64,000 nt of DNA from Acidobacteriota bacterium (GCA_030550025.1 JAUQQC010000005.1:138857-202856), one strand, 5' to 3'. Shown: positions 10,567 to 38,205, counted from the first letter of the stretch. A program made the numbers and translations. Notes: generated by a model from the letters alone, not told the origin.

Positions 10567-11658
10567 TCACCGAGAGAGGACGACGATGCTCTCGCGCGTC
10601 CAGCAGAGGAAGACGCGCTGCCCGTCACGGAAGGCGTCGGCTTTCGAGCCCGGGCGATTCGGCTCGGTCACGGTGACGTAGTGCTCCCCGACGCGCACGC
10701 GCCAATGCGTGGCTTCGCCCAGATACAGGCATTCCTCGATCACCCCCTCCAGTTGCACGAGATCGGTCCGGCGCAACGGGCGCGCGCGCAAGGCGATCTT
10801 CTCCGGGCGAATGGCCACCTGAGCCCGCGAGCCCTCGATTCGCCGCCCGTTAAGCGGGACCCGCACCGTGTGCCCGCACAGCCCCAGGAGCGCATCGCCG
10901 TTCTCACGGTGCAGGATCTCGGCCTCCAAGACATTGGCCGCCCCGAGAAAGGTCGCGACGAAGGCCGTCTCCGGACGCTCGTACACCTCGCGAGGCGTGC
11001 CGATCTGTTGCAGGCGTCCATCGGCGATCACGGCGATCCGATCCGACAGGGCCAGGGCTTCTTCCTGATCGTGCGTGACCAGGAGAAAGCTGATGCCGAC
11101 CTCGCGCTGCAAGCGCTTCAACTCGCGTTGCATCTCTTTGCGAAGTTGGAGATCGAGCGCCGCCAGCGGTTCATCCAGAAGCAGCGCTTCCGGCTCCAGC
11201 ACGAGCGCGCGCGCCAGGGCCACGCGCTGCTGCTCGCCGCCAGACAGCTCGTGCGGCCATCGCCGTTCGTATCCCGAGAGCCGCACCAACTCCAACGCCG
11301 CGGCAACCCGTCGCTCGATCTCCCGTCGCGAGAGCCGCTTCTGCTCCAGTCCGAAAGCGACGTTCCGATACACGTTCAGGTGTGGGAAGAGGACATATTG
11401 CTGGAAGACCGTGTGCACGCGCCGCCGATAGGGGGGGACGTCGGTCACGTCTTCACCGCCCAAATACACGCGCCCGTCATCCGGTCGTTCCAACCCGGCG
11501 ATCACCCGCAAGAGCGTCGTCTTCCCCGAGCCCGAAGGACCGAGCAACGTGAGGAACTCGCCGCGTTCGACTTCCAACGAGACCGCCTCAAGCGCTGTGA
11601 CCGCACCGTAGCGCTTGGTCACGCCCTCCACGCGAATCGCACTGGTTGCGGTCGCCAT
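10567..11658 (-). CDS. potA: spermidine/putrescine ABC transporter ATP-binding protein PotA
   Basis: ORF track 363 aa. Walker A GPSGSGKTTLLR, signature LSGGEQQRVALARAL, Walker B LLLDEPLAALD, C-terminal regulatory domain. Confidence 0.85.
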   Translation of the reverse strand: MATATSAIRVEGVTKRYGAVTALEAVSLEVERGEFLTLLGPSGSGKTTLLRVIAGLERPDDGRVYLGGEDVTDVPPYRRRVHTVFQQYVLFPHLNVYRNVAFGLEQKRLSRREIERRVAAALELVRLSGYERRWPHELSGGEQQRVALARALVLEPEALLLDEPLAALDLQLRKEMQRELKRLQREVGISFLLVTHDQEEALALSDRIAVIADGRLQQIGTPREVYERPETAFVATFLGAANVLEAEILHRENGDALLGLCGHTVRVPLNGRRIEGSRAQVAIRPEKIALRARPLRRTDLVQLEGVIEECLYLGEATHWRVRVGEHYVTVTEPNRPGSKADAFRDGQRVFLCWTRESIVVLSR

Positions 11659-11786
11659 CGTTCGTCTTCGGGGCTATAAAATAAACGAGTCGGCAGGTCC
11701 GGCGCAAGCCTCCGAAGATGCGAACACCGCGCGGCGGTGAGCGTTTCCTCGCCGAAGGCGCTGCGCGCGCTCGAAGCGGCTCTCTC

Positions 11787-12368
11787 TCAGGGGACGTCGC
11801 CGAAGGCCCCCTCGATCAGTTCGCACAAGATGTGGCCGAGCGTGATATGCGTCTCTTGAATGCGCGCCGTCTCTTCCGAGGGGACGACGAGCGGCACATC
11901 CACGAGCCGTCCGACCGGACCCCCGTCGCGCCCCAGCAGGCCAATCGTGCGCAGACCGAGCCGTCGCGCCGTCTCCACAGCGCGCACGACATTGGGCGAA
12001 CGACCGCTCGTGCTGATGGCGACGGCGACATCGCCCGGTTCCCCGAGCGCCTCGATCTGTCGGCTGAAGACGTCCTCGAACGAAGTGTCGTTGGCGATCG
12101 AGGTCAGAATGGACGTATCCGTCGTCAGCGCCAGAGCGGCGAGCGCTGGACGCTCCCGCCGATAGCGATTGACCAATTCCGCGGCCAGATGCTGCGCATC
12201 GGCCGCGCTGCCGCCGTTCCCGAAAAAGAGGACCTTATGGCCGGCGCGCAGCGCGGCGATCATCAGCTCGGCCGCGCGCGCCACTTCCTCGGCATGCGCT
12301 TCGAAGAAGCGCTCTTTCACGCGCACGGATTCGCGAGCCGAGGCTTTGATGCGTTCGACGGTCGTCAT
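11787..12368 (-). CDS. SIS-domain phosphoheptose isomerase (GmhA-like)
   Basis: ORF track 193 aa. [20 protein letters not shown] and [15 protein letters not shown] are typical of GmhA/DiaA SIS proteins. Confidence 0.65.
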
Positions 12369-12396
12369 AGCGAGCCCTCGCGCACGTGGTGCATGC

Positions 12397-14874
12397 CTAC
12401 CGGAAAATATCGCGCCAGGCGGCGACGCCCCCCCAATTCAGCCGCGCGCCCACGCGGAAATTGAGCTTCGGCGCGGGATAGCCGAAGACCTCCGTATACC
12501 GCTGATTCAACACGTTCTCAATGACGGCCACAAGCGTGAGGCGATCGTGCGGCCGAACGCTCAGGCTCACGTCCAGCTTCTGATACCCCGGATTCAGATT
12601 GCGATTCGGCAGAAGCATCGAGGGGCCGAAGAAGGGGTCCGAGAGGAACGTGCTCGTGTCACGGCGGCCGACGAACGATCCGACGACCGCCGCGCTCCAG
12701 CGCGAGCGCGCCCACCCTAGGAGCAGACTCCCCACATGGGGAGGGCGTTGAAAGGGACGCGCGCCCACCAGCGGCGCGAACGCGCCGATGGGAATGCCAG
12801 GGAACGCCGGATTGAAGGAAGGTCGTAACGCATCGCTGGAGAACGAGCGCAGAATCTTCGCATCCACGTAGGTGTAACTCCCGCGCGCCATGAGCCCGTG
12901 GCCGAGATCGGCCAGCAGCTCGACCTCCGCACCGCGCGCGCGAAACGTCTGCGCGTTCACGTTCGCCCCAAACGGCGTCGCCTGCGCGACTTCGGCCGGA
13001 ACCCCAAGCTGCACAAGCGCCGATCGCGAGAGGAATTCGATCACGTTCTCGAACCGATTGTGAAAGAGCACAAGCGACAGGCGCGCGTGATTCCACCCGA
13101 AGTTCTGATCCAGACCGACCTCGAAGCTGCGATTGCGCTCCGGTCCGATGGGCGCGATCCGAAAGCGCGCGATCAGCGCTTCGCCCGATTCCCCCAGGCG
13201 GCGCAGCACGGCGAAGAGCGACGATCCCTCCTGGAAGATGCTCGGCTCCTTGATGCCCGTGCCGAAATAGAACCGCAGCTTCATCTCGTTCCACCAGGAC
13301 GATGTCTCCCCGCGTCGCAGCACATACGCCAGCGAGACGCGCGGATTCGCGTCCACGCCGAACACAGCATTATCCTCGATGCCCACGCCCGCCGTCACAA
13401 ACAATCGCGCCACCCAATTATACTGGCCCTGGAGGAAGTAGCTGAAATTATTCCGCGCGACGCGTTGCGCGCCCGAACGACCGCGCTCGTTCTCGTAGCG
13501 AAAACCAAACGTGCCCGTGAACGCCTCCCCCACCGATACATCCGATTGCGCGAAGAGCGATTGTCGTACCGTGTCGGTCACGAACGTTTGCGGATAGACG
13601 CCGCCGAAGTCCAGGATCGCGCGCCCGCTCACGCGAAATCCGTTCCCCCCGACGATGGTGACCGGGGCGCCGAGATACACCGGGCCGAAGCCGAAGGGAT
13701 CAAAGGGTTCACCCGTCGGCGCCGGATTCGTGAAACGACTCATCGAATGGACCGAGGAGAAGCGGATCTGATTCTGCCAACGGCGCATCGCATGATGCCG
13801 TCCGCTCAGCACCACGTAAGTCTCGCGCCCGCGCATAGTGGAATCATCGGGAATGCCGTAGAAGTCGAGCGCATTGGGCACGCCGAGCGCCATCACCGTG
13901 TGACGGAGCACCAGGCGAACCTCCGACGCGACGCTCGGTTGCCAGCCGAAATTCCCGGCATACGTCCCGTTGTGGTAGGCGTGATGGGGAAGGTGATTGT
14001 CCGTGTCGTAGCGACTGAAACTCGAAGCGTAATCGAACGCGCGAGCCGCTCCGGATAAGGACACCTCCTGCCGCAGGCTGCGATAGCTTCCCCCTTCGAT
14101 GGCATACCCGAACACAGGGATGCGCGCGTGCTCTCGTCCGCGACGGGTGAAGATTTGGAGGACACCACTTGTGGCATCCGATCCATAGAGGACGCTGTTG
14201 GGATTTCGCATGACCTCGACCCGTTCGATTTGCGTCCCCACGAGCGTGGAGAAGTCGAAGAAGCCACCGATCTGATTGATCGGCGCGCCATCGAGCAACA
14301 CCTTAGTGAAGCTGCTGTTCCCCCCCCGCACGAAGAGGCTCGCCTGTCCCCCGCGTCCCCCAGTCTGCGCGACATGCAGGCCGGGGATGAGCCGAAGGAG
14401 CTCCAGGACATGCACCTTCGCCTGACGCCGGAAGTCGTCCTCTTCCACCACGGCGACCGAGGCGCCCAATTGCGCTCGCGGGACTTCGGTCCCCGTCGCC
14501 GTCACGACGATCTCCTCCCGCAACGGGCCAACCGAGAGCATGACGTCCAGGACGCGCACGGCATTCGCCGGCACGAAGACGTTCGAAATCGTGCGCGGCG
14601 CAAACCCCTCTCGTTCCACGCGAAGGTCGTAGAGGCCGCCGGCCAGTCCCGCAAACCGATAGCGTCCGCTCTCGTCCGCGCTCGCGCGCGCGACCTGCTG
14701 CCCATCCCGAAGGAGCACGATGGAAGCTCCGGGAAGGACGGCACCAAGTGGATCGGTGATCCGTCCCTCGAGCGCGCCACCGGGTGCGCGCTGCCCGGCG
14801 AAGACCGATGCGCACAGAAGAAGACCACCCAGGATCCATCCGACGCTCGAAAGCATCTGCCGATTTTTTCGCAT
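12397..14874 (-). CDS. TonB-dependent outer-membrane receptor with N-terminal carboxypeptidase-regulatory-like domain (probable cobalamin receptor by context)
   Basis: ORF track. Start set to ATG 14872-14874 ([17 protein letters not shown]...) with AGGGAG RBS, just below the upstream ATPase stop. Signal peptide, [19 protein letters not shown]...GRYRF domain, TonB-box-like EEIVVTATG, plug and beta-barrel, C-terminal aromatic residue. Confidence 0.8.
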
Positions 14875-14896
14875 CTCCCTCCTCCCTGACAAAAAT

Positions 14897-15760
14897 TCAG
14901 CGCTCCCGCTGGAGCACGAACTTCGGAGCGGACGCCGCTCCATTGGTGCGCTCACCCGATGGATTGCCGCCTCGATCAGGGATCGGCCCCACGAAGGTGA
15001 TCCGCGGCGCTCCGCTCAGTGGATGGCGATCCACGAGGAACTCCGCCTCGAAGGCCTGCCGGAGTCTCTCTTCAGTGAACACTTCATGAGGCGGCCCACA
15101 GGCGATCACCTGCCCATCCTTCAACAACAGCACGCGGTCGGCGAATTCGGCCACGAGATTCAGCTCGTGCGCGATGAAGACCGTCGAGAGCGCGCGCTCG
15201 CGCGTAATCCGTCGGATGAGCGCGAGCATCTCGACTTGAAAGCGCACATCCAGATTCGCCGTCGGCTCATCCAACAGCAGCGCGCGGGGTTCCCCGGCGA
15301 GAGCGCGCGCCAGGACCACGCGCTGCCGCTCGCCTCCGGAGAGTTCGGCAAGCTCCCGATCCTTGAATTCCAACGCGCGCATGAGGCGGAGCGCCGAGAG
15401 CGCGATCTGCCGGTCCCGCTCGCTCTCGAAGCCGAAGCCATTCGAATACGGGAACCGCGCGTGCAGGACGTATTCGAGCACGGTCATCGGAAAGCCGAGC
15501 TTCGGCTCCTGGAGGACGACGCCAAACCGTTGCGCCAACTCGCGAGGAGAGAAATGCCCAAGCGGCTTCCCCTCCCACAGAACCTCGCCTCGCTGCGGGC
15601 GCAGCAGCCCACGCATCAGTCGGAGCAGCGTCGTCTTCCCCGATCCATTCGGGCCGATCACGGCGACGAGTTCTCCCGAAGCGACGACGAGCGAGACGCC
15701 AGCGAGCACCGGTCGAGCGCTCCGTTCATAGGCGAACGTGACGTCGCGCACTTGGAGCAT
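14897..15760 (-). CDS. ABC transporter ATP-binding protein, FecE/BtuD family
   Basis: ORF track 287 aa. Walker A GPNGSGKTTLLR, signature LSGGERQRVVLARAL, Walker B LLLDEPTANLD. Confidence 0.85.
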   Translation of the reverse strand: MLQVRDVTFAYERSARPVLAGVSLVVASGELVAVIGPNGSGKTTLLRLMRGLLRPQRGEVLWEGKPLGHFSPRELAQRFGVVLQEPKLGFPMTVLEYVLHARFPYSNGFGFESERDRQIALSALRLMRALEFKDRELAELSGGERQRVVLARALAGEPRALLLDEPTANLDVRFQVEMLALIRRITRERALSTVFIAHELNLVAEFADRVLLLKDGQVIACGPPHEVFTEERLRQAFEAEFLVDRHPLSGAPRITFVGPIPDRGGNPSGERTNGAASAPKFVLQRER

Positions 15761-15763
15761 CGC

Positions 15764-16834
15764 TCATGCCCTCCGCAAAAGGAGGATGAAAAACGGCGCG
15801 CCCAGCGACGCCATCACCGCGCCGACGGGCAACTCGCGCGGCGCCAGCGCCGTCCGCGCCACCGCATCGGCGAGCACAACGAGAATCGCACCCGAGAGCG
15901 CAGCTGCCGGGATCACCAACCGATTGTCGCTCCCCCAGAGCATGCGCACAAGATGCGGCACCAAAAGCCCGACGAACCCGATTGCGCCGGCCACTGAGAC
16001 AATCGTCCCGGCCAGCAACGACGCCAGCAGATAAGCCGCCGTCTTCACGCGCTCCACGTCCACGCCAAGCACGCGCGCGTCCTCTTCCCCCACCATGAGG
16101 AGGTTCAACCGGCGCGCGTGCGCATACGCCACGGCGGCTGCCCCAAAGACGATCCCGAGGACGAGTGGGAGCAGACCGTTCCCCCCTCCGCTCAGATCGC
16201 CCATCATCCAGAAGGTGAGCCCGCGCAGATGCGGATTCGGCACCAGAGCGAGCACAAGCGCGACCGCTGACCACAGCAGCGTCGCCAAGATCAACCCGGC
16301 GAGGACGAGACGTTCGGTGGAGATCCCCGTCCGACCGCGGCTCAGTCCGTAGACGAGCGCCGTCACCAGCGCGGCTCCAGTGAAGGCGAGCAACGGACGC
16401 AGAAGCGGCAGCTCCGCAAAGCCTAGGACGGCGAAGATCGCGCCAAGCGCCGCTCCACCGGAGATGCCAAGCACATACGGTTCGGCCAGGGGATTCCGGA
16501 GCAGCGCCTGAAGCAAGACCCCAGCGACGGCCAGCGCCGCACCGGCTGCAAGCCCCAGCAGAACGCGCGGCCCTCGAATTCGCCACACGATCGTGTCCGA
16601 GACGGTCGGCTCTCCCGCGCCGCCGAATAGATGCGTCCGCAAGACCTCCGCCACGGCCTCGCGCGACACAGGCTCGCTCCCCATATGAAGGGCGGCCGTC
16701 GCGATGAGCAACAGCAGCAGCGCAAGCACCCCGCAGACGACGGCGACTTTCTTCGGCGTGGCTGGCCCGCGCTCAAAAAGCGAGCGCCCCAAGACACGAT
16801 GCGCTTCCACCATCGCCAAGCGGTAGCGGATCAT
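15764..16834 (-). CDS. ABC transporter permease, FecCD/BtuC family
   Basis: ORF track 356 aa polytopic membrane protein of the FecCD type (RLVLAGLILATLLWS, GAIGFVGLLVPHLVRML). Start overlaps the upstream stop. Confidence 0.85.
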   Translation of the reverse strand: MIRYRLAMVEAHRVLGRSLFERGPATPKKVAVVCGVLALLLLLIATAALHMGSEPVSREAVAEVLRTHLFGGAGEPTVSDTIVWRIRGPRVLLGLAAGAALAVAGVLLQALLRNPLAEPYVLGISGGAALGAIFAVLGFAELPLLRPLLAFTGAALVTALVYGLSRGRTGISTERLVLAGLILATLLWSAVALVLALVPNPHLRGLTFWMMGDLSGGGNGLLPLVLGIVFGAAAVAYAHARRLNLLMVGEEDARVLGVDVERVKTAAYLLASLLAGTIVSVAGAIGFVGLLVPHLVRMLWGSDNRLVIPAAALSGAILVVLADAVARTALAPRELPVGAVMASLGAPFFILLLRRA

Positions 16835-17754
16835 CGAAAGGCCTCCGGATGAAGGACGCGCGCCAGTTCCTCGACGCCCTCGATGAGCCGAGGCCCGGGA
16901 CGCATGAGCAGATCAGTGTGGATCGCATAGACGCGCCCACGCCGCAACGCCGGCGTCGTCTCAAGCTCCGGCCAGCGCATGTCCGCGAGCCGACGCGTAG
17001 TGCGCTCGCGCGAAGGGAGAATGATCACCTCCGGAGCGCGCGCGAGGACAGTCTCCAAACTGTAGGGCGTCCATTCCCGCTCGGCGTCGGCCGTGATGGA
17101 TTGACCGCCCGCCTGCTCGACGAGATCGGTCATGAAGGCGCCGCGCCCAGGGACGATCAACGGATCGCGCTGAATGACCATGAGGACGCGCGGCCGCGGC
17201 CGCCCGCGCACTCTCGCGCGAATGTCCTCCAGTCGAGCGCGCAGCGCGCGCACCACGCGCTCGGCCTCCTCGCGGCGCCCTGTGATCTCACCCAGGTTCT
17301 CGAGCGAACGCAGGACGTCCTCCACGCGATCAGCATTCACGACATAGAGGGGAACGCCAACCTCCTCCAATCTTCGGGCGAATCGCTCCAGTTGCGTCGC
17401 CGTCGAGATGATGACCAGATCCGGCCGCAGCGCCAGGATCCGCTCCAAACTCGGGTTGAGGACATCGCCGACCTTCTCCTTGGCGCGCGCAGCCGGAGGA
17501 TAATCGCAGTAGCTGGTCACACCCACGACGCGCTCCCCCAAATCGAGCGCAAAGAGCATCTCGGTGACGCTGGGGGCGAGCGAGATCAAGCGCTGCGGAG
17601 AGGGCGGAATCGCCACGCGCCGGCCGATCTCATCGGTGACGATCCGAAGCTCCGCAGATCGAGGCGCGCCCTCTTGTGAGGAGAGGGGACGACAAGCCCA
17701 CAAGAGGAGAAGCAGGATGGGGAGGAGAAGAAAAGCTCGCATTGACGTTGGCAT
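16831..17754 (-). CDS. periplasmic substrate-binding protein, BtuF-like (cobalamin/siderophore class)
   Basis: ORF track. Start set to ATG 17752-17754 (MPTSMRAFLLLPILLLLLWACRP signal peptide). RLISLAPSVTEMLFALDLGERVVGVTSYCDYP is typical of BtuF-like binding proteins. Sits directly downstream of the riboswitch. Confidence 0.75.
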   Translation of the reverse strand: MPTSMRAFLLLPILLLLLWACRPLSSQEGAPRSAELRIVTDEIGRRVAIPPSPQRLISLAPSVTEMLFALDLGERVVGVTSYCDYPPAARAKEKVGDVLNPSLERILALRPDLVIISTATQLERFARRLEEVGVPLYVVNADRVEDVLRSLENLGEITGRREEAERVVRALRARLEDIRARVRGRPRPRVLMVIQRDPLIVPGRGAFMTDLVEQAGGQSITADAEREWTPYSLETVLARAPEVIILPSRERTTRRLADMRWPELETTPALRRGRVYAIHTDLLMRPGPRLIEGVEELARVLHPEAFR

Positions 17755-17789
17755 CCCAGCGTCACCTCGCGCCAGTTTCTGCCACACGC

Positions 17790-18000
17790 GAGCGGGCAGG
17801 TCTCCTGACTGAGTCCCTGGCTCATCCGCGCGATGAGCAGGTCAGCGCCTTCCCAACCCCTTCGGGCCAGTGGCCTGAGTGCCGACCATGCGGGACATCA
17901 CAGTGGCGAGGGCCGTGCCGGATTCGCACCGGACTTCCCTATTCTCCCGAAGTACCCTCATGCCTGCAGGCCTTCGGGCACCCGCCGCGTTGTGAAAGAA
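17790..18000 (-). promoter_or_regulatory. cobalamin (B12) riboswitch
   Basis: Minus-strand RNA reads ...GGTGCCCGAAGG...AGGGAAGTCCGGTGCGAATCCGGCACGGCCCTCGCCACTGTGATG...GGCCACTGGCCCGAAGGGGTTGGGAAGGCG...TCAGGAGACCTGCCCGC. B12 box GCCACTG is the complement of 17901-17907. Directly 5' of the BtuF-like start. Boundaries approximate. Confidence 0.7.
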
Positions 18001-18284
18001 CCCATCAACAGGGGGAAAGCGTAGTACTCGAAGCGCAGGGATGTCAAGCTCGCAAAGAGCCGAAGGAGCGCGATTCGCCCACCGCCCGCAGTGAATCCCT
18101 CACGGCCGAGGCGACGGTCTACCATGACAGGAGCGAGCTCCGACGAGCCGCCCTGCTGCGAACGCCCTCGCGAGGATCGCTCATGCGGTGGGAAAAAAGC
18201 GGATTTACAAATTTCCCGAAACGGAATCTCCCGAATGGGCATCTAAGCGGGTGGTAGTGGAGATCAGAAGCGAGGAGGCGAACG

Positions 18285-19370
18285 ATGATCTGGGAGCGAA
18301 TCGGACAGGTGCTGGCACCGAGTGTGGCGGTGGATCTGGGGACGGTGAACACGCTCATCTACGTGCGGCATCGCGGGATCGTACTCGCGGAGCCGACGGC
18401 CATCGCTGTGGATCGCGCTGACGGTCGCGTCCTGGCCGTCGGGCGCGAGGCCATGCACATGTTAGGTCGCGAGCCGCGAGAGATCGCCGTACATCGTCCG
18501 GTGCGATCGGGCGTGGTGGCCGATTATGAATTGGCGGAGAAGCTGTTGCGAGGCTTGCTGGAACAGGCTCTGGGCTCTCGCTTGCGCTCGTGGGTCTTCC
18601 CACGCCTGGTGCTGGGCACGCCGAGCGTTTCCACTTATGTCGAACGGCGCGCGCTTCGAGAAGCGGCACATCAGGCCGGCGGCTTTCACACGATCCTCAT
18701 CGAGGATGGGATTGCGGCTGCGCTGGGCGCTGGAGCGCTCGCGCATAATGGCCAGGCGAGCCTCATCGTAGACATCGGAGGCGGGACGACCGACATCAGC
18801 CTCGTCACCACCTCGGGACTGATCGCCGCGTATTCCTTGAACGTGGCCGGCATCGCCATGGATCAGGCCATCAGCGACTACGTGCTGAAGCGCTACGGCA
18901 TGATCGTGAGCGAACAGATGGCCGAGGCGATCAAGATCACGCTCGGAGCAGCGCTTCCCCGAACCCCGACTCGGTCCATGCGCGTCGCTGGCAAGAATGT
19001 ACACACGGGAACGCCGTGTGAGATCACGCTCACCAGCGACGAGGTCTTCGCGGTCTTGAACGGGCTGGTGGAGACGATCCTTCAAGGAGTACGCCTGATG
19101 CTCGAGCGCATGTCGCCAGAGACAGCTGCCGATCTCTGTGCGACGGGCATCACGTTGACGGGCGGAGGATCGCTCCTTTGCGACCTGGATGCGCGGTTCC
19201 AACAGGAGTTTGGCATCCCTGTCTTCCGCGCGGAACATCCGTTGGAATCGGTCGCGCTGGGCCTCGGCTACTTACTGGAAGAACCCGTATGGCTTGAGCA
19301 TTTCCGATGCGAAGAAGAAGATGCCGAGTGGATGAACGAGGTGGAACCGATCTATGGCGCCGCGCGCTGA
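18285..19370 (+). CDS. mreB: rod shape-determining protein MreB
   Basis: ORF track 361 aa. Actin-like ATPase motifs VAVDLGTVNTLIY and LIVDIGGGTTDISL; RBS GAGGAGG upstream. Confidence 0.9.
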   Translation: MIWERIGQVLAPSVAVDLGTVNTLIYVRHRGIVLAEPTAIAVDRADGRVLAVGREAMHMLGREPREIAVHRPVRSGVVADYELAEKLLRGLLEQALGSRLRSWVFPRLVLGTPSVSTYVERRALREAAHQAGGFHTILIEDGIAAALGAGALAHNGQASLIVDIGGGTTDISLVTTSGLIAAYSLNVAGIAMDQAISDYVLKRYGMIVSEQMAEAIKITLGAALPRTPTRSMRVAGKNVHTGTPCEITLTSDEVFAVLNGLVETILQGVRLMLERMSPETAADLCATGITLTGGGSLLCDLDARFQQEFGIPVFRAEHPLESVALGLGYLLEEPVWLEHFRCEEEDAEWMNEVEPIYGAAR

Positions 19371-24616: not shown

Positions 24617-26003
24617 ATGGCTCTGCGCCTTCTCCGACCCAGACGCTCGAACGAACGAACGCGTCGGAGATTGCATCCGGCATCTCCTGAGCTGCTGGTG
24701 CGCCCTCGGACATCCCCGGAATCATTGTCAGAAACGGGCGTGGTCTTCGCGCTCTCTTCCCCCCGAGCCCGCGCGCTGTTTCTCCTGATTTGGCTCGCGC
24801 TGCTGGGCTATGGGGCACATAGCCTTGTGCGCGAATTCCGCGGGTATGCTTTGGCCTCGCTCTTTCAGGACGTCGAGGGATTGGCAGACGCATTACGGTT
24901 CACTCCGGTAGCGCCGGAACTGCACGAGCAGCTCGGGATGATCTACCTCCTTGATCCCGCGCACTTCGATCCGCCAAAAGCCGTGGCCCATTTTCGTCAG
25001 GCCGTCGCGCTCTCTCCTTACGATGTGCGATACTGGGTGGGATTGGGACGCGCCTTTGAAGCGAATGGCAAGTGGGAGCAAGCAGCGCGAGCGTATGAGC
25101 GGGCCATTGTGCTGGCCCCGCATCATTTTCGCCCTCGCTGGCTCTATGCCAATTTCCTGTTGCGCAGCGGGCGAACGGAGGCCGCAGTTGAGCACCTCTG
25201 GCCGCTTGTGGAGGCGGCGCCGGACGTCGTGGAGAATGTTTGCGATTTGATCTGGCACGTGCGCGAAGGGGATGCGACCGCGTTGCAACGTTTGGCTGAA
25301 GGACGTCCCTCATGGGTGGCGGTGAAGATCGGGGAATACCTTCTAGCGAGGGGGCGAGCGGAAGAGGCCATCGCCTTGTGGTGGAAGCTGCCACGATGGG
25401 ACGACGCGGCGCGCGAAGGCGGGCGACGCTTGGTGCGAGGACTCGTGCGCGCGCGGCAATGGGCGGAGGCCGAACGGGTCTGGCGCGAGTGGCTGCGCCG
25501 GGAACACGGGCGAGAGCCCACGACGACTTTCTGGAACGGCGATTTTGCGCATCCGGTCGTCGAAGGGGGATTGGACTGGCGGATCACCTCCTCGCGCGAA
25601 GTTGCGGCCGGCATTGATGAGAGCGTCGGGTATGGGGATGTGCGTTCGCTCGTTCTGGAGTTTCGCGGGCACGAGGGGGTGCGATATGCGGGCATCAGGC
25701 GCGAGATCGTGGTCGAACCTGCGACGCGCTACGTGCTTCGATTCGCGTACAAGACGCAGGGGATGCTCTCATCCAACGGACTGTACATCGAAATCGCCGA
25801 TGCCGAAGATGCGCACCGGATGCGCGTGCGGCGGGAATCGCTCGCCGCGAGCCCGGAGTGGGCGCTCGTGCACCTGGAATTCGTGACGACGGCCCAGACG
25901 CGCGCGGTACAACTGGTGCTCGGCCGCGAGCCGACGCATCCGCTCCACGACTACATTCGCGGGCGCGTCTGGTTCGACGCATTTACGCTCGTGCGGGCAT
26001 CCG

Positions 26004-26020
<17 letters not shown>
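24617..26020 (+). CDS. membrane-anchored TPR-repeat protein with C-terminal beta-rich domain
   Basis: ORF track 467 aa. TM ALFLLIWLALLGYGAHSLV, TPR-like helices (AVAHFRQAVALSPYDVRYWVGLGRAFEANGKWEQAARAYERAI), then ~150-aa beta-rich C-terminus. True start uncertain. Confidence 0.55.
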
Positions 26021-28426
<2,406 letters not shown>

Positions 28427-28434
28427 GGACGTTC

Positions 28435-28666
28435 ATGAGGGAGGGCTTTGGGATCAGGGGATTTGTGGGCTCGCATTTGGTGGGATTTCTGCTCGCGCAA
28501 CGGTGCGGGCGCTGGTCTTATGCGCGATCTCACTCGGGTGGAGAATCTGCACGCCGTGTGCGCGAAGGTGAGGCTCTTTGAGGCCGACGTCTGCGAGGCG
28601 GCGTGTGGGGAAGCGATCGTGGCCGACGTGCGAGCGGCCTCGCATGGAGCCAATGGTGCGAATTGA
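28435..28666 (+). pseudogene. remnant of an NAD-dependent sugar epimerase/reductase gene (N-terminal ~77 codons, frameshifted)
   Basis: Frame 1 gives MREGFGIRGFVGSHLVGFLLAQR (Rossmann GxxGxxG N-terminus), then a +1 shift near 28500 continues as GAGLMRDLTRVENLHAVCAKVRLFEADVCEAACGEAIVADV and stops at 28666. A full-length homologue would be ~300 aa. Confidence 0.35.
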
Positions 28667-28686
28667 AGTCCGCATGCGGGATTCAG

Positions 28687-29709
28687 ATGCGGGTGCTTGA
28701 TCCGGCGCCGCCAGAATTGTGGGATCGCGTGTGCGCGCGCTGCCCATACGCCACGTTCTTTCACACGCGGCTTTGGGCGGAAGCGATGGCAGCCGCGTTC
28801 CCGCAGCTTCGCATCGCGACGCGCGCCTATCTCTTCGAGGATGGGACGGTGGCTATTCTTCCGCTCATGCGGTATCGCGCGGGGCTCCGAGGCCTCCTGC
28901 GCGGCTATGAGTCGATGTTCCCGGGCGTCTACGGAGGCGTCATCGCCGAAGGGACGCTCTCCGAAGAACAGGTGCGCGCGATCTACGCGAGTCTGCGCGG
29001 GCCACGCACAGCGTGGGTGCGCGTATTCGGCAATCCCTATGCCCCGTGGGGGATCCCGGGAGCGTTTCGCCCGACGGTCCTCTTCACGCAAGCGCTGCGC
29101 TTATCGGGGGAGTTCAAGGATATTTGGCGCCAGTTCTCCCGAGGGAATCGCAGCAATATCCGAAAGGCGATGCGCAGCGGGCTGCAGGTGACGCTCGCCG
29201 AGAGCGAGAGCGATTACGCGGAGTACTACGCCGCGTATCACGATGCGCTTCGCCGATGGGGGGAGCGGGCGACCAGTCGCTATCCGTTCGCCGTATTTCG
29301 CGCCCTCGGCCGTTACGATGCGCGATGCGTGCGCTTGTGGCTGGTGCGAAAGTCCGGGGTGGTCGTCGGCGGAATTCTCGTCCTTTATCACAATCGGCAT
29401 GCCGTTTACTGGCACGGCGCTTTCGTCGCCGCGTTCTTCGAATATCGGCCGAGCAACCTCGTGCATGCCGAGGCCATTCGGGACGCCTGCGAGCGGGGCT
29501 ACGAATGGTACGATTTCAATCCGAGCGGTGGCCACACGGGTGTCGTGCGCTTCAAGCAGTCGTTCCATCCGCAGACGCTCTATTTCCACGCGGTGGAGAT
29601 CGAAGGTCCTCGGCTCTTTCACCTCTACGCGAGAGGACGCGAGCGCCTGCTCGCCGGCGCTTCTCGCTTATGGTCCGGCGATCGGGCAAAGGGGGATCAA
29701 GGCCTATGA
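28687..29709 (+). CDS. FemAB-like / GNAT-fold acyltransferase
   Basis: ORF track 28603..29709. Start set to the ATG at 28687 (MRVLDPAPPELWDR...). About 340 aa with FemAB/CelD-like resemblance (YAPWGIPGAF..., LYHNRHAVYWHGAF...). Stop overlaps the next start. Confidence 0.55.
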   Translation: MRVLDPAPPELWDRVCARCPYATFFHTRLWAEAMAAAFPQLRIATRAYLFEDGTVAILPLMRYRAGLRGLLRGYESMFPGVYGGVIAEGTLSEEQVRAIYASLRGPRTAWVRVFGNPYAPWGIPGAFRPTVLFTQALRLSGEFKDIWRQFSRGNRSNIRKAMRSGLQVTLAESESDYAEYYAAYHDALRRWGERATSRYPFAVFRALGRYDARCVRLWLVRKSGVVVGGILVLYHNRHAVYWHGAFVAAFFEYRPSNLVHAEAIRDACERGYEWYDFNPSGGHTGVVRFKQSFHPQTLYFHAVEIEGPRLFHLYARGRERLLAGASRLWSGDRAKGDQGL

Positions 29710-30311
29710 CCTGGAGAGATCTCCTCCGTCTCTGGCGTCGCGTGAAGGCGGATCTGGAACGCGCATATTATGAAGAGAAGCTCCGCGAGGAGCTTCGAGC
29801 GCGAGCGCCCGGCCTTCACCTTGGCCGTCACGTCACGATCGTTCGGCCGGATCGACTCATCTTGGGGGAGAACGTCATCATCCACGACCACTGCGTGCTT
29901 TACTGTGCGGGACAAGCGCCGGAGTATCGTCAAGGGGGGCGCATCATCATCGGGAATCACGTCGAGCTGGCCTGGGGATGCATCCTGCACGGAGGCGGGG
30001 CGCAGATCATTCTCCGCGATTTCGCAATCATCGGGGCCGGAGCCGTGCTCGTCTCGGAGATGTACAGCTACCGCGATCCGAGTCGGCCGGCTCGCTTTCA
30101 GACGAAGCTCATGGGCGACATCGTCGTGGAAGAGAACGCGACCATCGGCGCGAACGCTGTCGTTCTGCCCGGTGTCACCGTTGGTCGGAGTGCGATCGTG
30201 GGCGCCGGCGCGGTCGTCACGCGCGACGTCCCTTCCTTCTCGGTAGCCGTCGGCGTTCCGGCGCGCGTCATCAAGCGAATCGACGCCGTGGAGGCTACGC
30301 GCGATTCATAA
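29706..30311 (+). CDS. hexapeptide-repeat (left-handed beta-helix) acetyltransferase
   Basis: ATG at 29706 (MTWRDLLRLW...) overlaps the upstream stop. 201 aa with hexapeptide repeats IIGNHVELAWGCILHGGGAQIIL...IGANAVVLPGVTVGRSAIVGAGAVV. Confidence 0.75.
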   Translation: MTWRDLLRLWRRVKADLERAYYEEKLREELRARAPGLHLGRHVTIVRPDRLILGENVIIHDHCVLYCAGQAPEYRQGGRIIIGNHVELAWGCILHGGGAQIILRDFAIIGAGAVLVSEMYSYRDPSRPARFQTKLMGDIVVEENATIGANAVVLPGVTVGRSAIVGAGAVVTRDVPSFSVAVGVPARVIKRIDAVEATRDS

Positions 30312-30343
30312 GGTCACGCACCTTGGGTTGGCGTCTGACCCCC

Positions 30344-31873
30344 ATGCCCAAATTGGCGGCCGAATTCGAGTTCGGGCTTTCGGAGCGAGAACCGACGAGT
30401 GCGCTTCTTGTCCGAGCGGCACGCGGTGCGTTCTGGTCCTGGAGCGCGCAAGTCCTCAAGCAGCTTCTACAGCTTGCGATTATGGCGATTCTCGCGCGAT
30501 GGCTCACTCCGGCCGATTTCGGACGCCTGGCGATGATCGGCGTCGTGACGGGGTTCTTGAGCCTCTTCGGCGAATTGGGGATCGGCCCCGCTCTGATCCA
30601 GAAGCGCGAGATCGGGAGCGCGCACCTCTCGGCCGCCTTCTGGGGAAGCCTCGCAGCCGGTCTGGTGTTGATGTTCCTGCTGATGCTCGGCGCGCCGCTT
30701 ATCGCCAGCGTGTACGCGGACGCGCAGCTTGTGCCGCTTGCGCTGGCACTCGCCGCGAATTTCCCGCTGGTCGCTCTGGCGACGGTGCCGATCAACCTCC
30801 TGCAGCGAGAGCTCCAGCTTGGGCGGCTCGCTGCGGTGGAGCTGCTCGCGCTCGTACTTGGCGGCGCGGTCGCCGTGGGTCTGGCACTTCGCGGAGGGGG
30901 GGCATGGAGCTTGGTGGGACAAACGCTCGCGGCCTCAGGGGCGACGGCCATAGCGGCGTGGGGGGTGATCGCCGTTCGCGTCCAAGAAGTGGGGAGCCCC
31001 GTGAGCGTGGATCGCGGGGTCCTTCGAGATCTGTTTCGCTTCGGACGACCCCTCGTGGGGATCAACGTCCTGAATTACGTCGCTCGAAACGCGGACAATG
31101 CGCTCATTGGGAAGTTCCTGGGAGCGCAGGCGCTCGGGTATTATGCGCTCGCCTATCGGCTGCTGCTCTTCCCGCTGCAAAACCTCTCTTGGGCGCTCGG
31201 GCGCGCGCTCTTGCCGGCGCTGGCGCGAGTATCCGATCCCGAGCACGTGCGCCTCGCGTACCGGCGCATGGTTGAAGGGATCGCCATCGTGGCCTTTCCG
31301 ATGATGATCGGCATGGCCATTGTCGCTCCCGAAGTCGTTCGTCTCCTCTATGGGCCGCAATGGGAGCGCGCCATCTTCCTAGCACGCGTCTTCTGCGGCA
31401 TCGGAGCGTTGCAAGCGATTGGGACGACGATTGGGCCACTCTGTCTCTCCCAAGGGCGACCGGACGTCTTATTCCGATGGAATCTCATCTTCACGCCCGC
31501 GGTCGTCGGCAGCATCGCGCTTGGCCTTCGGTGGGGGATCGAAGGCGTCGCCCTGGCTTATGCGAGCACGAGCGCTGCCGCCTGGTACTTCTCGCACGCG
31601 CTCGCCAATCGGGTCATTGCGCTGCGGATGCGCGTCTTTCTGCGCGCGCTCGCGCCCGCCGCCGTGAGCACGCTCGTCATGGCCGTCGGGATCCTCTTCG
31701 CGCGGGTCTGGTTCATCCGTCCGCACATCTCGAGCGCTCTTGCGGCCTTAGCGTTGCACGTGGGCCTTGGTGCGAGCCTCTACGTTCTCGCGCTCAGCCG
31801 TCTCCGACCGAATGCGCTCGGTGAATTGCGCGAGCTCGTGCGCCTCTTCGTTCGGAGGAATCTGAGCGAATGA
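30344..31873 (+). CDS. wzx: polysaccharide flippase (Wzx / MOP superfamily)
   Basis: ATG at 30344 (MPKLAAEFEFGL...) in frame with track ORF 29978..31873. About 509 aa with ~12-14 TMs; typical MOP-flippase N-terminus. Confidence 0.7.
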   Translation: MPKLAAEFEFGLSEREPTSALLVRAARGAFWSWSAQVLKQLLQLAIMAILARWLTPADFGRLAMIGVVTGFLSLFGELGIGPALIQKREIGSAHLSAAFWGSLAAGLVLMFLLMLGAPLIASVYADAQLVPLALALAANFPLVALATVPINLLQRELQLGRLAAVELLALVLGGAVAVGLALRGGGAWSLVGQTLAASGATAIAAWGVIAVRVQEVGSPVSVDRGVLRDLFRFGRPLVGINVLNYVARNADNALIGKFLGAQALGYYALAYRLLLFPLQNLSWALGRALLPALARVSDPEHVRLAYRRMVEGIAIVAFPMMIGMAIVAPEVVRLLYGPQWERAIFLARVFCGIGALQAIGTTIGPLCLSQGRPDVLFRWNLIFTPAVVGSIALGLRWGIEGVALAYASTSAAAWYFSHALANRVIALRMRVFLRALAPAAVSTLVMAVGILFARVWFIRPHISSALAALALHVGLGASLYVLALSRLRPNALGELRELVRLFVRRNLSE

Positions 31874-31977
31874 GCGCCAGGGCGTGCACTGCGGGTTTCG
31901 CCCTTGCCGACTCCTTTCGTGCGAATTTACCCTCTATGCCTCTTGGCGTGAGGCAGGCGAAAGTGAGAGAGCAGCCT

Positions 31978-33153
31978 ATGGAGACCATCGTGACGGCGAA
32001 ACCGAAGACGTTTCCCATCCGCTTCGACCGCAACGAATGGGCAGGTGCGTTCGGGGACTTGGGCACGGACTTCCCGCTCGTCGTGGGCGTCACGCTCGTG
32101 GCCAATCTCGACAGCGCGAGCGTGCTCACCATGTTCGGCCTCATGCAGATTCTGACGGGATTGCGGTATCGCCTCCCGATGCCGGTGCAACCGCTCAAGG
32201 CAATGGCTACCATCGTGATCACGCAGAAGCTCGGCGGCTCCATCCTCTACGGAGCGGGATTGGCCATCGGCGTCATCATGCTGCTTCTCTCTCTGTCGGG
32301 GCTTATTGACTGGCTGGCACGGGTCATCCCCAAAAGCGTCGTGCGCGGGATTCAATTCGGGCTCGGTTTGCAACTGGCGCTGCTTGCCTTGCGGGAATAT
32401 GTGCCGGCCGACGGCCTCTCCGGATATGCGCTCGCCGCCGTGGGATTCAGTCTCACGCTCCTGCTATTGGGGAATCGGCGATACCCGGTGGCGTTGCTCC
32501 TGGTCCTGATCGGCTTCGCCTACAGCTTCGCATTCAAAATCCCCGTCTCTGCCCTCGTTCAAGGCGTTGGCCTGAATCTGCCGAAGGTTCACGTTCCTCA
32601 GTGGTCGGACATCCTGACGGGCTTTTTCCTTCTGGTGTTGCCGCAAATCCCCCTCTCGCTCGGGAACGCGATCCTGGCCACGCGACAGATCGTCGAAGAC
32701 CTCTTCCCCGAGCGCCGGGTCACGGTGCGACAGATCAGCCTCACGTACGCAGTGATGAACGTGACGAACCCATTTTTCGGCGGCGTTCCCACGTGCCATG
32801 GCGCCGGGGGGATTGCCGGACACTACGCCTTTGGCGCGCGCACGGGTGGTTCGGTGATCATCGAAGGTGCGCTCTATATGCTGCTGGGCCTCTTCTTCGG
32901 ACGGGGGTTCGACGCGATCGTGAAGATCTTCCCGCTGCCCATTCTGGGCATCATCTTGTTCTTCGAGGGCGTGACCCTTCTGCGCCTGGTGCGGGAGGGA
33001 GCCCCGTCTCGAGGCGACTGGATGACCATCTTGCTCGTTGGACTTCTGGCGGTCGGACTCCCCTACGGGTATCTCATCGGGATGTTCGTCGGCATCGTCT
33101 TCGCCTTCTTGATGAAGCGCGGTCTTGTCGTCCTGGAAGCTAAAGGGCTGTAG
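31978..33153 (+). CDS. putative sulfate/molybdate-type anion transporter (MOT-like)
   Basis: Start set to ATG 31978 (METIVTAKPKTFPIRF...). Polytopic membrane protein with NPFFGGVPTCHGAGGIAGHYAFGARTGG, which I recognise as the sulfate/molybdate transporter family signature. Confidence 0.55.
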   Translation: METIVTAKPKTFPIRFDRNEWAGAFGDLGTDFPLVVGVTLVANLDSASVLTMFGLMQILTGLRYRLPMPVQPLKAMATIVITQKLGGSILYGAGLAIGVIMLLLSLSGLIDWLARVIPKSVVRGIQFGLGLQLALLALREYVPADGLSGYALAAVGFSLTLLLLGNRRYPVALLLVLIGFAYSFAFKIPVSALVQGVGLNLPKVHVPQWSDILTGFFLLVLPQIPLSLGNAILATRQIVEDLFPERRVTVRQISLTYAVMNVTNPFFGGVPTCHGAGGIAGHYAFGARTGGSVIIEGALYMLLGLFFGRGFDAIVKIFPLPILGIILFFEGVTLLRLVREGAPSRGDWMTILLVGLLAVGLPYGYLIGMFVGIVFAFLMKRGLVVLEAKGL

Positions 33154-33238
33154 CCGAAGCGGGGGCCTCGGCAACGAGAGCGAGAATCGGCAAGACCTGG
33201 CGCTCGCGATGTTCGCTCGGATGCATCGGACGAACCCA

Positions 33239-34432
33239 ATGAAGAATATCGAGGACGCACGGCTTGTCGTCGCTGAGGTGAAGCCGGATTATCTGCCGCT
33301 GACGGAGACCTTCATCTACGAATACGTGCGCGCGCTGCAGCGCGTCCGCCCGATCGTCGTGGCCGAAGAGGTGAAACATCTGGAGCACTTCCCGGTCGAA
33401 GCGCTCGTCCGCGTACGTGCGCGGGGAATGACGGTAGGGGAGCGCATTGCGGATCGGTTGCAGGCCGCGCTGTTCGGATTTGAGAACGCGCGCGTCTACC
33501 GGTACTATGAGGCGCTGCGGCGTCTGCGCCCACATCTTGTGCACGCGCATTTCGGGCCGACGGGCGTCCTCCTGCTCGCCGCGACGCAGCGCCTGAAGGT
33601 GCCGCTCATCACGTCCTTTTACGGCTACGACCTCTCGGCGCTCGCGCGAGAGTCCGACTGGCGAGCGCGGTATCGTCATCTCTTCGCCCGCGGCGCGCTC
33701 TTTCTCGTCGAAGGCCCGCACATGCGCGAGCGACTCCTTCGGCTTGGATGCCCGTCGGAGAGGATTCGCCTGCAGCGCATCGCGATTGATCTCGACGAGT
33801 TCCCTTTCCGCCCGCGCGTTTGGCGCGAGGGGCCGGTTCGCCTGCTGCAGGTCGGGCGCTTGGTCGAGAAGAAGGGACACGAATACGCACTGCGGGCGTT
33901 CGCGCGCCTCCGATCGCGCGTTCGCGCGAGCGAGTTTTACGTTATCGGGGATGGGCCGTTGCGCTCGCATCTGGAACGGCTCGCCGAGGAGCTCGGCATT
34001 GCTGAGGCCGTACGATGGATGGGGGCCCTCCCGCGCGCGGCCTATCGCGAAGTGGCCGAACAATGCCATATCCTCGTGCAGCCGAGCGTCGTCGCCGCAA
34101 CCGGCGACGATGAGGGGGGAGCGCCGACGGTCCTCCTGGAGATGCAGGCCTCGGGCATGCCCATCGTCGCGACGCGCCACGCCGACATCCCCTATGTCGT
34201 TCGCGAAGGGGAAAGCGCTCGACTCGTCCCCGAGCGGGACGTTGCGGCGCTGGCCGATGCGCTTCTTGAGCTCATCGAGAATCGGGAGCGATGGCCGTCC
34301 ATGGCCGAAGCCGGCCGCACCTTCGTCGCCGAACGCCATGACATTCGTCGCGAAGCCCCTCGGCTGGAGGAGCTGTATTGGTCGGTGATCGAAGCGCCGT
34401 ATGCGGTCCCGTCCCTATCGGATGTCCCGTGA
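33239..34432 (+). CDS. glycosyltransferase family 4 (GT-B)
   Basis: ORF track 33125..34432. Start ambiguous (ATGs at 33209, 33221, 33239). C-terminal GT4 motifs EGGAPTVLLEMQASGMPIVATRHADIPYVV. Confidence 0.7.
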   Translation: MKNIEDARLVVAEVKPDYLPLTETFIYEYVRALQRVRPIVVAEEVKHLEHFPVEALVRVRARGMTVGERIADRLQAALFGFENARVYRYYEALRRLRPHLVHAHFGPTGVLLLAATQRLKVPLITSFYGYDLSALARESDWRARYRHLFARGALFLVEGPHMRERLLRLGCPSERIRLQRIAIDLDEFPFRPRVWREGPVRLLQVGRLVEKKGHEYALRAFARLRSRVRASEFYVIGDGPLRSHLERLAEELGIAEAVRWMGALPRAAYREVAEQCHILVQPSVVAATGDDEGGAPTVLLEMQASGMPIVATRHADIPYVVREGESARLVPERDVAALADALLELIENRERWPSMAEAGRTFVAERHDIRREAPRLEELYWSVIEAPYAVPSLSDVP

Positions 34433-34438
34433 GCATCT

Positions 34439-35815: not shown

Positions 35816-36950
35816 TGCGCCGGACGGCGAAGGGATTCGCGTTGTTCACGTTTCGCCCACGTATTTTGGCGAGCGTTCGATCCTCGGTGGAGGAGAGCGC
35901 TACGCGACCGAACTGGCGCGGGCGATGGCTCGGCTGACGCCCACACGGTTGGTGAGCTTCGCCACGTGCGCGGACGAGCGGGAGCCGGTGGTGGCTGAGA
36001 CGTCGCTTGAAGTGCGCCTCTTTCGCCCTTTCTGGTACCCGCGTGGTCAGCGAACGAATCCCGTCAGCGTCCGATTCCTCACGGCGCTCGCCGATGCCGA
36101 CGTCATCCATTGCCATCAATTCCACGTCGTCGCGACGACGCTCGCGATCGCGTATGCCCGAGCGACGGGCAAGCGCGTCTTCGTCACGGACCTGGGCGGA
36201 GGGGGATGGGATCTCTCCTATCGCTTCGACACGGGGCGATGGGTGGACGGCTTCCTCCACCTCTCCCACTTCTCCGCGCGACGGTTCGCGCGGTACGAGG
36301 GGAAGAATCGCATCGTCTTCGCCGGTGTGGACGTCGAACGATTTCGTCCCCTGCCTGGGCGCACGTATGAGACGGTGCTCTATGTCGGGCGGCTGCTTCC
36401 GCACAAAGGGATCAATTATCTCATCGAGGCCGTAGACGCGACGATCGAGCTGCGCGTGATCGGCCGGCTGTGGGAGCCACAGCTCGGTGCGACGCGCAGC
36501 GCGGAGTATCTGGAACTGCTGCGGACGCTAGCGCGGGGCAAGCGCGTGCGCTTCATCTTCGATGCCGATGACGAACGGCTGGTGCGCGAGTACAATGCGG
36601 CGCTCGCGGTGGTCCTTCCCTCCGTGTACACGGACGTGTTCGGGGCGCAGCATCCGACTCCGGAGCTGTTCGGATTGACCCTCCTGGAGGCCATGGCGTG
36701 CGCGACGCCGGTGATCGCGACGGCGGTGGGCGCGCTGCCGGAGATCGTCGAGGAAGGGGTGACGGGATTTCTCGTCCCCCCGAACGACGTGCGCGCGCTG
36801 GCCGATCGCCTTCAGTGGCTGCGGCGACATCCCCAAGAGGCGCGCCGCATGGGAGAGCGAGGGCGCGCGCGCGCCCTGGAGCGGTTCACTTGGGAGGCCG
36901 TCGCGCGCCGCTGCCTGGCGATTTATCGCGAGGTGCTCCGCACCGGATGA
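35781..36950 (+). CDS. glycosyltransferase family 4
   Basis: ORF track 389 aa. GT4 motifs FGLTLLEAMACATPVIATAVGALPEIVEEGVTGFLV. Overlaps the previous gene by 35 nt if the ATG at 35781 is used. Confidence 0.7.
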   Translation: MIALARRRARHNAPDGEGIRVVHVSPTYFGERSILGGGERYATELARAMARLTPTRLVSFATCADEREPVVAETSLEVRLFRPFWYPRGQRTNPVSVRFLTALADADVIHCHQFHVVATTLAIAYARATGKRVFVTDLGGGGWDLSYRFDTGRWVDGFLHLSHFSARRFARYEGKNRIVFAGVDVERFRPLPGRTYETVLYVGRLLPHKGINYLIEAVDATIELRVIGRLWEPQLGATRSAEYLELLRTLARGKRVRFIFDADDERLVREYNAALAVVLPSVYTDVFGAQHPTPELFGLTLLEAMACATPVIATAVGALPEIVEEGVTGFLVPPNDVRALADRLQWLRRHPQEARRMGERGRARALERFTWEAVARRCLAIYREVLRTG

Positions 36951-38191: not shown

Positions 38192-38205
38192 GGTGCGAAA
38201 GGAAG

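Follow-up and report, generated by a model that had tools for sequence, protein, structure and literature searches.

A cobalamin riboswitch in the 5′ leader of a predicted corrinoid import operon that includes the outer-membrane receptor gene, in an uncultured Blastocatellia-like acidobacterium

In Escherichia coli, btuB is monocistronic as to uptake, with btuCED and btuF at other sites that have no riboswitch. Comparative genomics by Rodionov and Vitreschak reportedly described btuBFCD clusters regulated by a B12 element in 2003. We analysed a 64,000-nucleotide (nt) stretch of DNA from an Acidobacteriota bacterium (GCA_030550025.1, JAUQQC010000005.1:138857-202856; hereafter the window, with positions counted from its first letter), in which a cobalamin riboswitch on the minus strand is followed by btuF-, btuC- and btuD-like genes and by a gene for a TonB-dependent receptor. 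Since 2003, riboswitch-controlled btuB and btuBFCD units have helped to annotate B12 transporters (Zhang et al. 2009, PMC2667541, and references therein), and ligand binding by cobalamin riboswitches is known to be read out through a kissing loop between L5 and L13 (PMC9600662). On the side of the receptor, the architecture extended by PF13620 accounts for 28% of the TonB-dependent transporters surveyed and is one of two dominant architectures (PMC6434023).

The riboswitch of the window resembles the btuB leader of E. coli and Salmonella (RF00174, Cbl-I) in its aptamer architecture, with a B12 box and a P6 extension, and, as we propose, in OFF control of a B12 outer-membrane receptor gene, with occlusion of the ribosome-binding site through L5-L13 as the proposed read-out (PMC9600662). 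In contrast to the E. coli leader, it heads btuF, btuC, btuD and the receptor gene as one unit, and its L5 loop differs from the consensus CCCCCG. With the btuBFCD clusters behind B12 elements, the locus shares both the grouping of inner- and outer-membrane uptake genes behind a B12 riboswitch and the assignment of function from the riboswitch rather than from sequence alone, whereas the gene order F-C-D-B, the Blastocatellia-like host and the N-terminal domain of the receptor set it apart. The arrangement is a routine case of a well-known regulatory layout, both riboswitch-controlled btuBFCD units and receptors with such an N-terminal domain being well known, and it leaves the current understanding of riboswitches and of B12 transport unchanged. 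The gain is mainly one of annotation: the genes for B12 uptake in this uncultured Blastocatellia-like host can be named, and generic calls such as "TonB-dependent receptor" or "iron complex ABC transporter" should read corrinoid importers. Overall, we judge it highly probable that a class-I-type riboswitch in the 5′ leader controls a corrinoid import operon by the mechanism proposed below.

The aptamer was identified by cmscan with Rfam 15. RF00174 matched at 100.4 bits (gathering score 31.5; E = 6.2e-24), spanned model positions 1-189 of 189 without truncation, and was the sole Rfam match at the gathering threshold in the whole window. The alignment contained the conserved core, namely the B12 box, the GGGAA / GGUG..AAUCC T-loop-like segment and the C-rich L5; a second GCCACTG, at 17901..17907, is a P5/J5 segment. 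The P6 extension (P7-P11 region, model positions 80-158) was aligned with high posterior probability and places the element in the Cbl-I subclass. By these features it is a class-I-type riboswitch, that is, of the adenosylcobalamin (AdoCbl) type, with the ligand preference predicted from the class. The first-pass annotation, made from the sequence alone, had claimed a cobalamin riboswitch with a B12 box at this site and had left it to be checked with the covariance model; the full-length match, well above the gathering score, bears it out.

The genes behind the aptamer are co-directional and tightly spaced. Started at ATG 17754, the btuF-like gene encodes 307 amino acids (aa), the same length as in relatives. 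The ATG of btuC overlaps the btuF stop codon (ATGA, 4-nt overlap), and the receptor ATG lies 22 nt after the stop of the ATPase gene; an overlap at this last junction arises only with the unlikely start codon GTG 14955. Peripla_BP_2, FecCD and ATP-binding cassette (ABC) ATPase domains thus stand in adjacent or overlapping genes, as in BtuFCD type-II importers. Among NCBIfam models, BtuF NF002894 (3.6e-39, under cutoff) came second for the binding protein, after a PGF-CTERM-anchored binding-protein model (2.4e-43); the BtuC models NF007081 and NF003001 were top for the permease at about 1e-64, under cutoff; and the ATPase matched heme and corrinoid ABC ATPase models about equally well, at about 1e-67 to 1e-69, under their cutoffs. 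These domain matches and the spacing agree with the gene identities proposed in the first-pass annotation.

Table 1. Features of the riboswitch-led operon and of its flanking genes, with positions in the window
Feature	Position	Strand	Details
mreB	18285..19370	+	divergent, upstream of operon
Putative sigma-70-type promoter	18018..18047	-	-35 TTGACA 18042..18047, 18-nt spacer, -10 TACGCT 18018..18023; read from sequence
Aptamer RF00174 with P6 peripheral extension	17778..18000	-	cmscan
L5 loop CCCUCG	17907..17912	-	cmscan alignment and sequence reading
B12 box GCCACUG	17868..17874	-	cmscan alignment and sequence reading
Candidate P13 hairpin / expression platform	17752..17776	-	stem CUGGCG 17770..17775 and CGCUGG 17756..17761, loop CGAGGUGA 17762..17769
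btuF Shine-Dalgarno GAGGUG	17763..17768	-	inside loop CGAGGUGA, 8 nt upstream of ATG
btuF AUG	17752..17754	-	end of expression platform
btuF-like periplasmic corrinoid-binding lipoprotein	16831..17754	-	307 aa, lipobox LLWAC; PF01497 Peripla_BP_2 1.4e-39
btuC-like ABC permease	15764..16834	-	356 aa; PF01032 FecCD 3e-85
btuD-like ABC ATPase	14897..15760	-	287 aa, 3 nt after btuC; PF00005 1.1e-32
TonB-dependent corrinoid receptor	12397..14874	-	825 aa; PF13620, PF07715, PF00593
Receptor CarboxypepD_reg N-terminal domain	14536..14772	-	PF13620 8.9e-18, residues 35-113
Receptor TonB box EIVVTAT	14494..14514	-	residues 121-127
gmhA, sedoheptulose-7-phosphate isomerase (lipopolysaccharide heptose pathway)	11787..12368	-	own Shine-Dalgarno; PF13580 SIS_2; NF010546 8.8e-70

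The closest receptor homologues, at 79-90% identity, come from metagenome-assembled genomes (MAGs) labelled Blastocatellia and from "bacterium HR08/HR10". In the four relatives examined in detail (L001, L004, L006 and L008), RF00174 scored 94.6-101.4 bits and was followed by btuF, btuC, btuD, the receptor gene and gmhA. The order of riboswitch, btuF, btuC, btuD and receptor gene, with or without gmhA, is conserved in five Blastocatellia-like relatives; the receptors of relatives with this order are 79-90% identical to that of the window, except for one at 56%. Beyond these, Acidobacteriota contain hundreds of proteins of about 820 aa with about 50% identity and the same three-domain architecture, many of which are named "vitamin B12 transporter" by the Joint Genome Institute (JGI) pipeline. 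In a survey of the family in which each GTDB species was represented by a single genome, there were 349 related loci, of which the best 80 were examined; riboswitches were detected with an nhmmer profile built from nine Rfam-confirmed riboswitches, and btu and cob genes by tblastn. A cobalamin riboswitch lay upstream of the receptor, directly or at the head of its operon, in 79 of the 80 loci: singly and directly upstream in 46, as two tandem copies in 25, and at the head of an operon containing the receptor gene in 8, 5 of which have the F-C-D-receptor order of the window; the one other locus was truncated at its 5′ end. Rfam confirmed the riboswitch in 11 survey loci (83-107 bits). Predicted B12 control of this receptor family is near-universal in the loci examined across Acidobacteriota. 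In addition, several receptor orthologues of about 50% identity lie in clusters of the form cobU-cobT-cobS-cobC-btuF-btuR / riboswitch / receptor-btuC-btuD-cobQ. The layout kept in relatives and the riboswitch association of the family support the earlier view that inner- and outer-membrane uptake components form one riboswitch-controlled unit.

Tandem cobalamin riboswitches were frequent before the receptor gene in Terriglobia, with 25 among the 80 species (L020, L021, L022, L025, L028, L032-L037, L043-L045, L047, L048, L056, L058-L060, L062, L069, L074, L076 and L087); a 2022 survey counted 26 AdoCbl doublets in total (PMC9481103). Both copies of a pair were full-length and lay within about 700 nt upstream of the receptor gene, separated by gaps of 78-384 nt with no btu or cob gene between them (in L020, for example, at 5331-5507 and 5716-5903). 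The upstream copy was followed by a terminator-like hairpin with a U-rich tail, and the receptor-proximal copy by a hairpin, CUCUUCCGAGGGGAAGGAG, that sequesters the Shine-Dalgarno (SD) sequence.

In the window, a putative promoter lies about 10-20 nt upstream of the aptamer. In the leader alignment of five genomes, TTGAC of the -35 element and TA...T of the -10 element (17-18 nt apart) are invariant while neighbouring bases vary, which supports a promoter with transcripts starting just 5′ of the aptamer. The site went unreported by a consensus promoter scanner because its -10 element matches at 3 of 6 positions only. The TTGACA hexamer had been noticed on the minus strand in the first-pass annotation, correctly except that it was placed at 18043..18048, one base off. 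Neither reading of the sequence nor a terminator scan found an intrinsic terminator, that is, a hairpin followed by a U-tract, in the leader. Over 11500..18400, seven terminator-like sites were found against 5.4 ± 3.0 expected, which is chance level.

The gap of about 25 nt between the aptamer and the btuF AUG is taken up by the candidate P13 hairpin, which holds the btuF SD in its loop. With a stem of 6 bp and a loop of 8 nt, this hairpin is the minimum free energy (MFE) fold of the local 22-mer (-6.9 kcal/mol), and L5 can form a duplex of 5-6 bp with loop CGAGGUGA (CCUCG:CGAGG; -7.1 to -11.3 kcal/mol). The segment 17752..17799, from the 3′ strand of P1 to the AUG, is 100% invariant in the five genomes, while the btuF coding sequence diverges right after the start codon and the flanks diverge too; this pattern strongly suggests that the expression platform is under constraint. 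In distant loci, the receptor-proximal platforms carry G-rich loops (GAGGGG or GAGGGC) beside the SD, opposite a C-rich L5. An alternative MFE hairpin enclosing the AUG (UGACGCUGG-GAUG-CCAACGUCA) was ruled out, being broken in HR08 and L006.

From an SD in the loop of an L5-complementary hairpin, together with the lack of an intrinsic terminator, we infer translational OFF control through an L5-L13 kissing loop. Transcription would start from the TTGACA-N18-TACGCT promoter. Once a corrinoid is bound by the aptamer, L5 would kiss loop CGAGGUGA of the downstream hairpin, and because this loop holds the btuF SD, ribosome binding would be blocked. Repression would pass from btuF to btuC and btuD by translational coupling across the 4-nt overlap and the 3-nt gap, and would reach the receptor gene, and possibly gmhA, through the loss of ribosome protection (polarity or mRNA decay). 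Under B12 limitation, the SD would be free, so that the receptor, the periplasmic binding lipoprotein, and the ABC permease and ATPase would be made together.

Several observations weigh against this account and bear on the alternatives to it. The platform is identical in close relatives and therefore offers no covariation to analyse; among 90 distinct riboswitch platforms, L5 is nearly invariant (mostly GCCCCG), variants are few and, in distant loci, compensated only in part. When platforms were shuffled, 18% reached the 6 nt of L5/SD complementarity, which is not significant, so that we infer the kissing loop rather than establish it. Folding of the whole leader was no better than that of shuffles (z = -0.8) and thus uninformative. 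The first-pass annotation had suggested folding the platform to see whether the ribosome-binding site is sequestered; the local MFE hairpin has the SD in its loop, complementary to L5, but this complementarity is not distinctive against the shuffled controls. In addition, all four proteins fall short of their NCBIfam equivalog cutoffs, whether for BtuF (134.5 vs 234 bits), BtuC (219 vs 461 and 216 vs 334), BtuD (139 vs 281; 226 vs 537 for the corrinoid ATPase model) or BtuB (153 vs 599.7 for TIGR01779 and 103 vs 836 for NF007926, which are still the top-ranked receptor models), so the B12 specificity of the importer rests on the riboswitch and the context. Finally, the receptor gene, 2.9 kb downstream, has a strong SD of its own (GGGAGGAGGGAG), and a translational switch at btuF does not by itself explain its control. 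With four or five genes regulated from one leader, an effect at the transcript level is the simpler account of how this distal gene is controlled: binding of the ligand might cause premature termination, probably Rho-dependent, or mRNA destabilisation in the leader or early btuF. The hairpins with U-rich tails behind the upstream copies of tandem riboswitches in related loci indicate that the lineage does use termination-type platforms. However, no hairpin plus U-tract lies between aptamer and AUG here, where the SD hairpin fills the gap. We regard control that is mainly transcriptional as possible, if rather unlikely; it overlaps the translational model and does not exclude it.

A second alternative takes the receptor gene out of the unit. 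If it were expressed, with gmhA, mainly from its own promoter inside or after btuD, only btuFCD would be under riboswitch control and the components of the two membranes would not form one unit. Two features would fit such an arrangement: a promoter-like match at 14892..14863 (TTGTCA-N18-AAAAAT) and, where btuD ends (14917..14900), a hairpin with TGAATTTTTG behind it that two close relatives retain with one compensatory change. The promoter-like site, however, is conserved in no relative, and its -10 element would fall downstream of the conserved ATG of the receptor; HR08 and L006 lack the hairpin and have 2-40 nt between btuD and the receptor gene, and terminator-like sites occur at chance frequency. 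The weightiest evidence for counting the receptor gene in is family-wide: a riboswitch lies directly upstream of it in 71 of the 80 phylum loci. Selection thus seems to favour B12 control of the receptor, for which the operon leader is the sole possible source in the lineage of the window. We therefore consider a separate promoter improbable. Still less probable, to the point of being very remote, is that heme, a siderophore or another metal chelate is what the transporter takes up, in place of corrinoids, and that the riboswitch does no more than tie transporter expression to B12 status. The scores below the BtuF/C/D/B equivalog cutoffs, the marginally best match of the ATPase to a heme ABC ATPase model, and the difficulty of assigning FecCD and Peripla_BP_2 families by sequence (PMC2667541) leave room for such a substrate. 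They are outweighed by B12-specific NCBIfam models that rank top for receptor and permease and second, as BtuF, for the binding protein, by BtuB as the closest solved structures, by the riboswitch at 79 of 80 loci, and by orthologous receptors within cobU/cobT/cobS/cobC/btuR/cobQ salvage clusters. A corrinoid substrate is well supported by the sequence data, through the presence of receptor orthologues inside these clusters together with the riboswitch association.

The junction 14863..14917 was thus rejected as a separate control point, its promoter match being unconserved and overlapping a conserved start codon and its hairpin being shared with the two closest relatives only. The btuD 3′ hairpin itself (GUGCUCC-AGCG-GGAGCGC then UGAAUUUUUG; 14900..14917, minus strand) lies just before the receptor SD and shows a U·G-to-C-G change in the closest relatives. 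It may be a minor processing or stability element, or it may be due to chance.

The receptor start codon, ATG 14874, was set from homologue N-termini and the SD. The protein runs from a signal peptide through the CarboxypepD_reg domain, TonB box, plug and 22-strand barrel to a short helical tail at the C-terminus, and its top NCBIfam model was TonB-B12 TIGR01779 (1e-44). An AlphaFold2 model of moderate quality (predicted local distance difference test score 74, predicted template-modelling score 0.72) had E. coli BtuB as its top PDB matches in Foldseek, with target-normalised template-modelling (TM) scores of 0.85-0.90, compared with 0.76-0.78 for Cir and 0.77-0.83 for Bacteroides BtuB1-3; since Foldseek E-values are close among TonB-dependent transporters, structure alone is not decisive. 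The best PDB match by sequence was also E. coli BtuB (E = 5e-21, plug region), with the TonB box aligned to BtuB from residue 7 onward. TonB box, plug and predicted 22-strand barrel together give a BtuB-like fold, shared with E. coli BtuB (1NQE/1NQH) and Bacteroides thetaiotaomicron BtuB1-3 (8BLW, 8BMX, 8P98). The receptor differs from these proteins, with which its identity is 14-18%, in an additional CarboxypepD_reg domain (about 80 aa) ahead of the TonB box, in a barrel about 100 aa larger, in a C-terminal tail without a final aromatic residue, and in the lack of an adjacent BtuG-like lipoprotein gene.

Because E. coli BtuB aligns from receptor residue 121 only, it has no CarboxypepD_reg domain, and both the presence of a carboxypeptidase-regulatory-like domain ahead of the TonB box and its absence from E. 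coli BtuB had been rightly recognised from the sequence. The further description of this feature as SusC-like is apt for the shared N-terminal domain but not for the protein family. Membership in SusC/RagA was rejected, as TIGR04056 scored 79 bits against a cutoff of 368, and the gene downstream is gmhA, with no SusD-like gene in the operon. With Oar/SusC-type transporters the receptor shares the order PF13620, TonB box, plug and barrel, and so has an Oar-type architecture, whereas it lacks a SusD-like partner and its context is corrinoid, not glycan or protein. The most fitting description is that of a BtuB-like corrinoid receptor belonging to an acidobacterial subfamily with a CarboxypepD_reg N-terminal domain. 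In the collection of papers searched, we found no prior description of acidobacterial B12 receptors with this domain. The locus supports Acidobacteriota, which are abundant in soil and hot springs, as corrinoid scavengers with a distinct BtuB-like receptor, and this receptor with its N-terminal domain is a reasonable target for structural and uptake studies.

The receptor family ends without the usual terminal aromatic residue of outer-membrane barrels (12397..12429, minus strand, in the window; homologues P0001-P0040). After the last strand (…FRxGxKxTxGG) comes a short conserved tail, of 11 residues in the clade of the window and GGExGWWK or GGEGWR elsewhere; residues 816-824 form a short helix in the AlphaFold2 model. 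A terminator-like hairpin at the 3′ end of the receptor gene (12412..12428) falls in the codons of this tail, is followed by four U only and is not conserved in structure. It was taken as chance.

The gmhA gene follows the receptor stop codon after 28 nt. It is adjacent in all close relatives, with gaps of 10-28 nt, and no conserved terminator was found in this gap in the window and the close relatives. By this position, transcription of the B12-regulated operon may run on into gmhA, which would then be its fifth gene. The unit of four genes in the first-pass annotation accordingly stands as four tightly packed co-directional genes behind the riboswitch, but its end is less certain, as the unit possibly comprises five.

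Taken jointly, the survey, the receptor and gmhA allow a wider reading, which we hold to be an even call. The receptor would represent an uncharacterised, phylum-wide Acidobacteriota lineage of BtuB-like corrinoid transporters, distinct from the BtuB proteins of enterobacteria and Bacteroides by the CarboxypepD_reg domain before the TonB box, the conserved non-aromatic C-terminal helical tail and the lack of a BtuG partner. It would almost always be riboswitch-controlled, in about one third of species behind two tandem riboswitches, and in the lineage of the window it would be fused into a single btuFCD-receptor-gmhA transcript. If true, such a transcript would tie the synthesis of lipopolysaccharide heptose to B12 status. 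The apparent phylum-wide lineage with its odd C-terminal tail, the frequency of tandem riboswitches and the possible co-transcription of gmhA are points of mild interest beyond the riboswitch-led operon itself.

On the same strand, genes of a polyamine-type ABC transporter come next after gmhA; elsewhere the window contains housekeeping genes, an exopolysaccharide/O-antigen cluster, hemA and hemC. Apart from the operon, no other B12 genes and no cob genes were found in the window, only hemA and hemC. The exopolysaccharide/O-antigen cluster (24617..39378, plus strand) is long and co-directional, with genes for a tetratricopeptide-repeat protein, a Wzy-type ligase/polymerase, a FemAB-like acetyltransferase, a Wzx-type flippase and four GT4 glycosyltransferases; within this cluster sits a gene for a MOT1-type molybdate transporter (31870..33153).

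Some loci of the relatives showed features of their own. In bacterium HR08 (L001, 2324..3701), two extra genes encoding proteins of 112 and 341 aa without a Pfam match lie between mreB and the riboswitch promoter; they are lacking in the window and in the other relatives. Downstream of the receptor gene, an Acidobacteriota MAG (L036, 10388..13147) carries two copies of a group II intron, with Rfam D1-D4 and domain V-VI matches on both strands, and a Candidatus Angelobacter MAG (L029, 11578..11623) has an Rfam match to the Acido-Lenti-1 small RNA (46.8 bits) at a distance of about 3 kb. At six loci (L012, L030, L064, L070, L078 and L087) whose receptor and riboswitch are plainly acidobacterial, the MAGs are assigned to Clostridia, Saccharimonadales, Limnocylindrales, Verrucomicrobiia or Aquilonibacter, which probably reflects mis-binned contigs or wrong taxonomic assignment.

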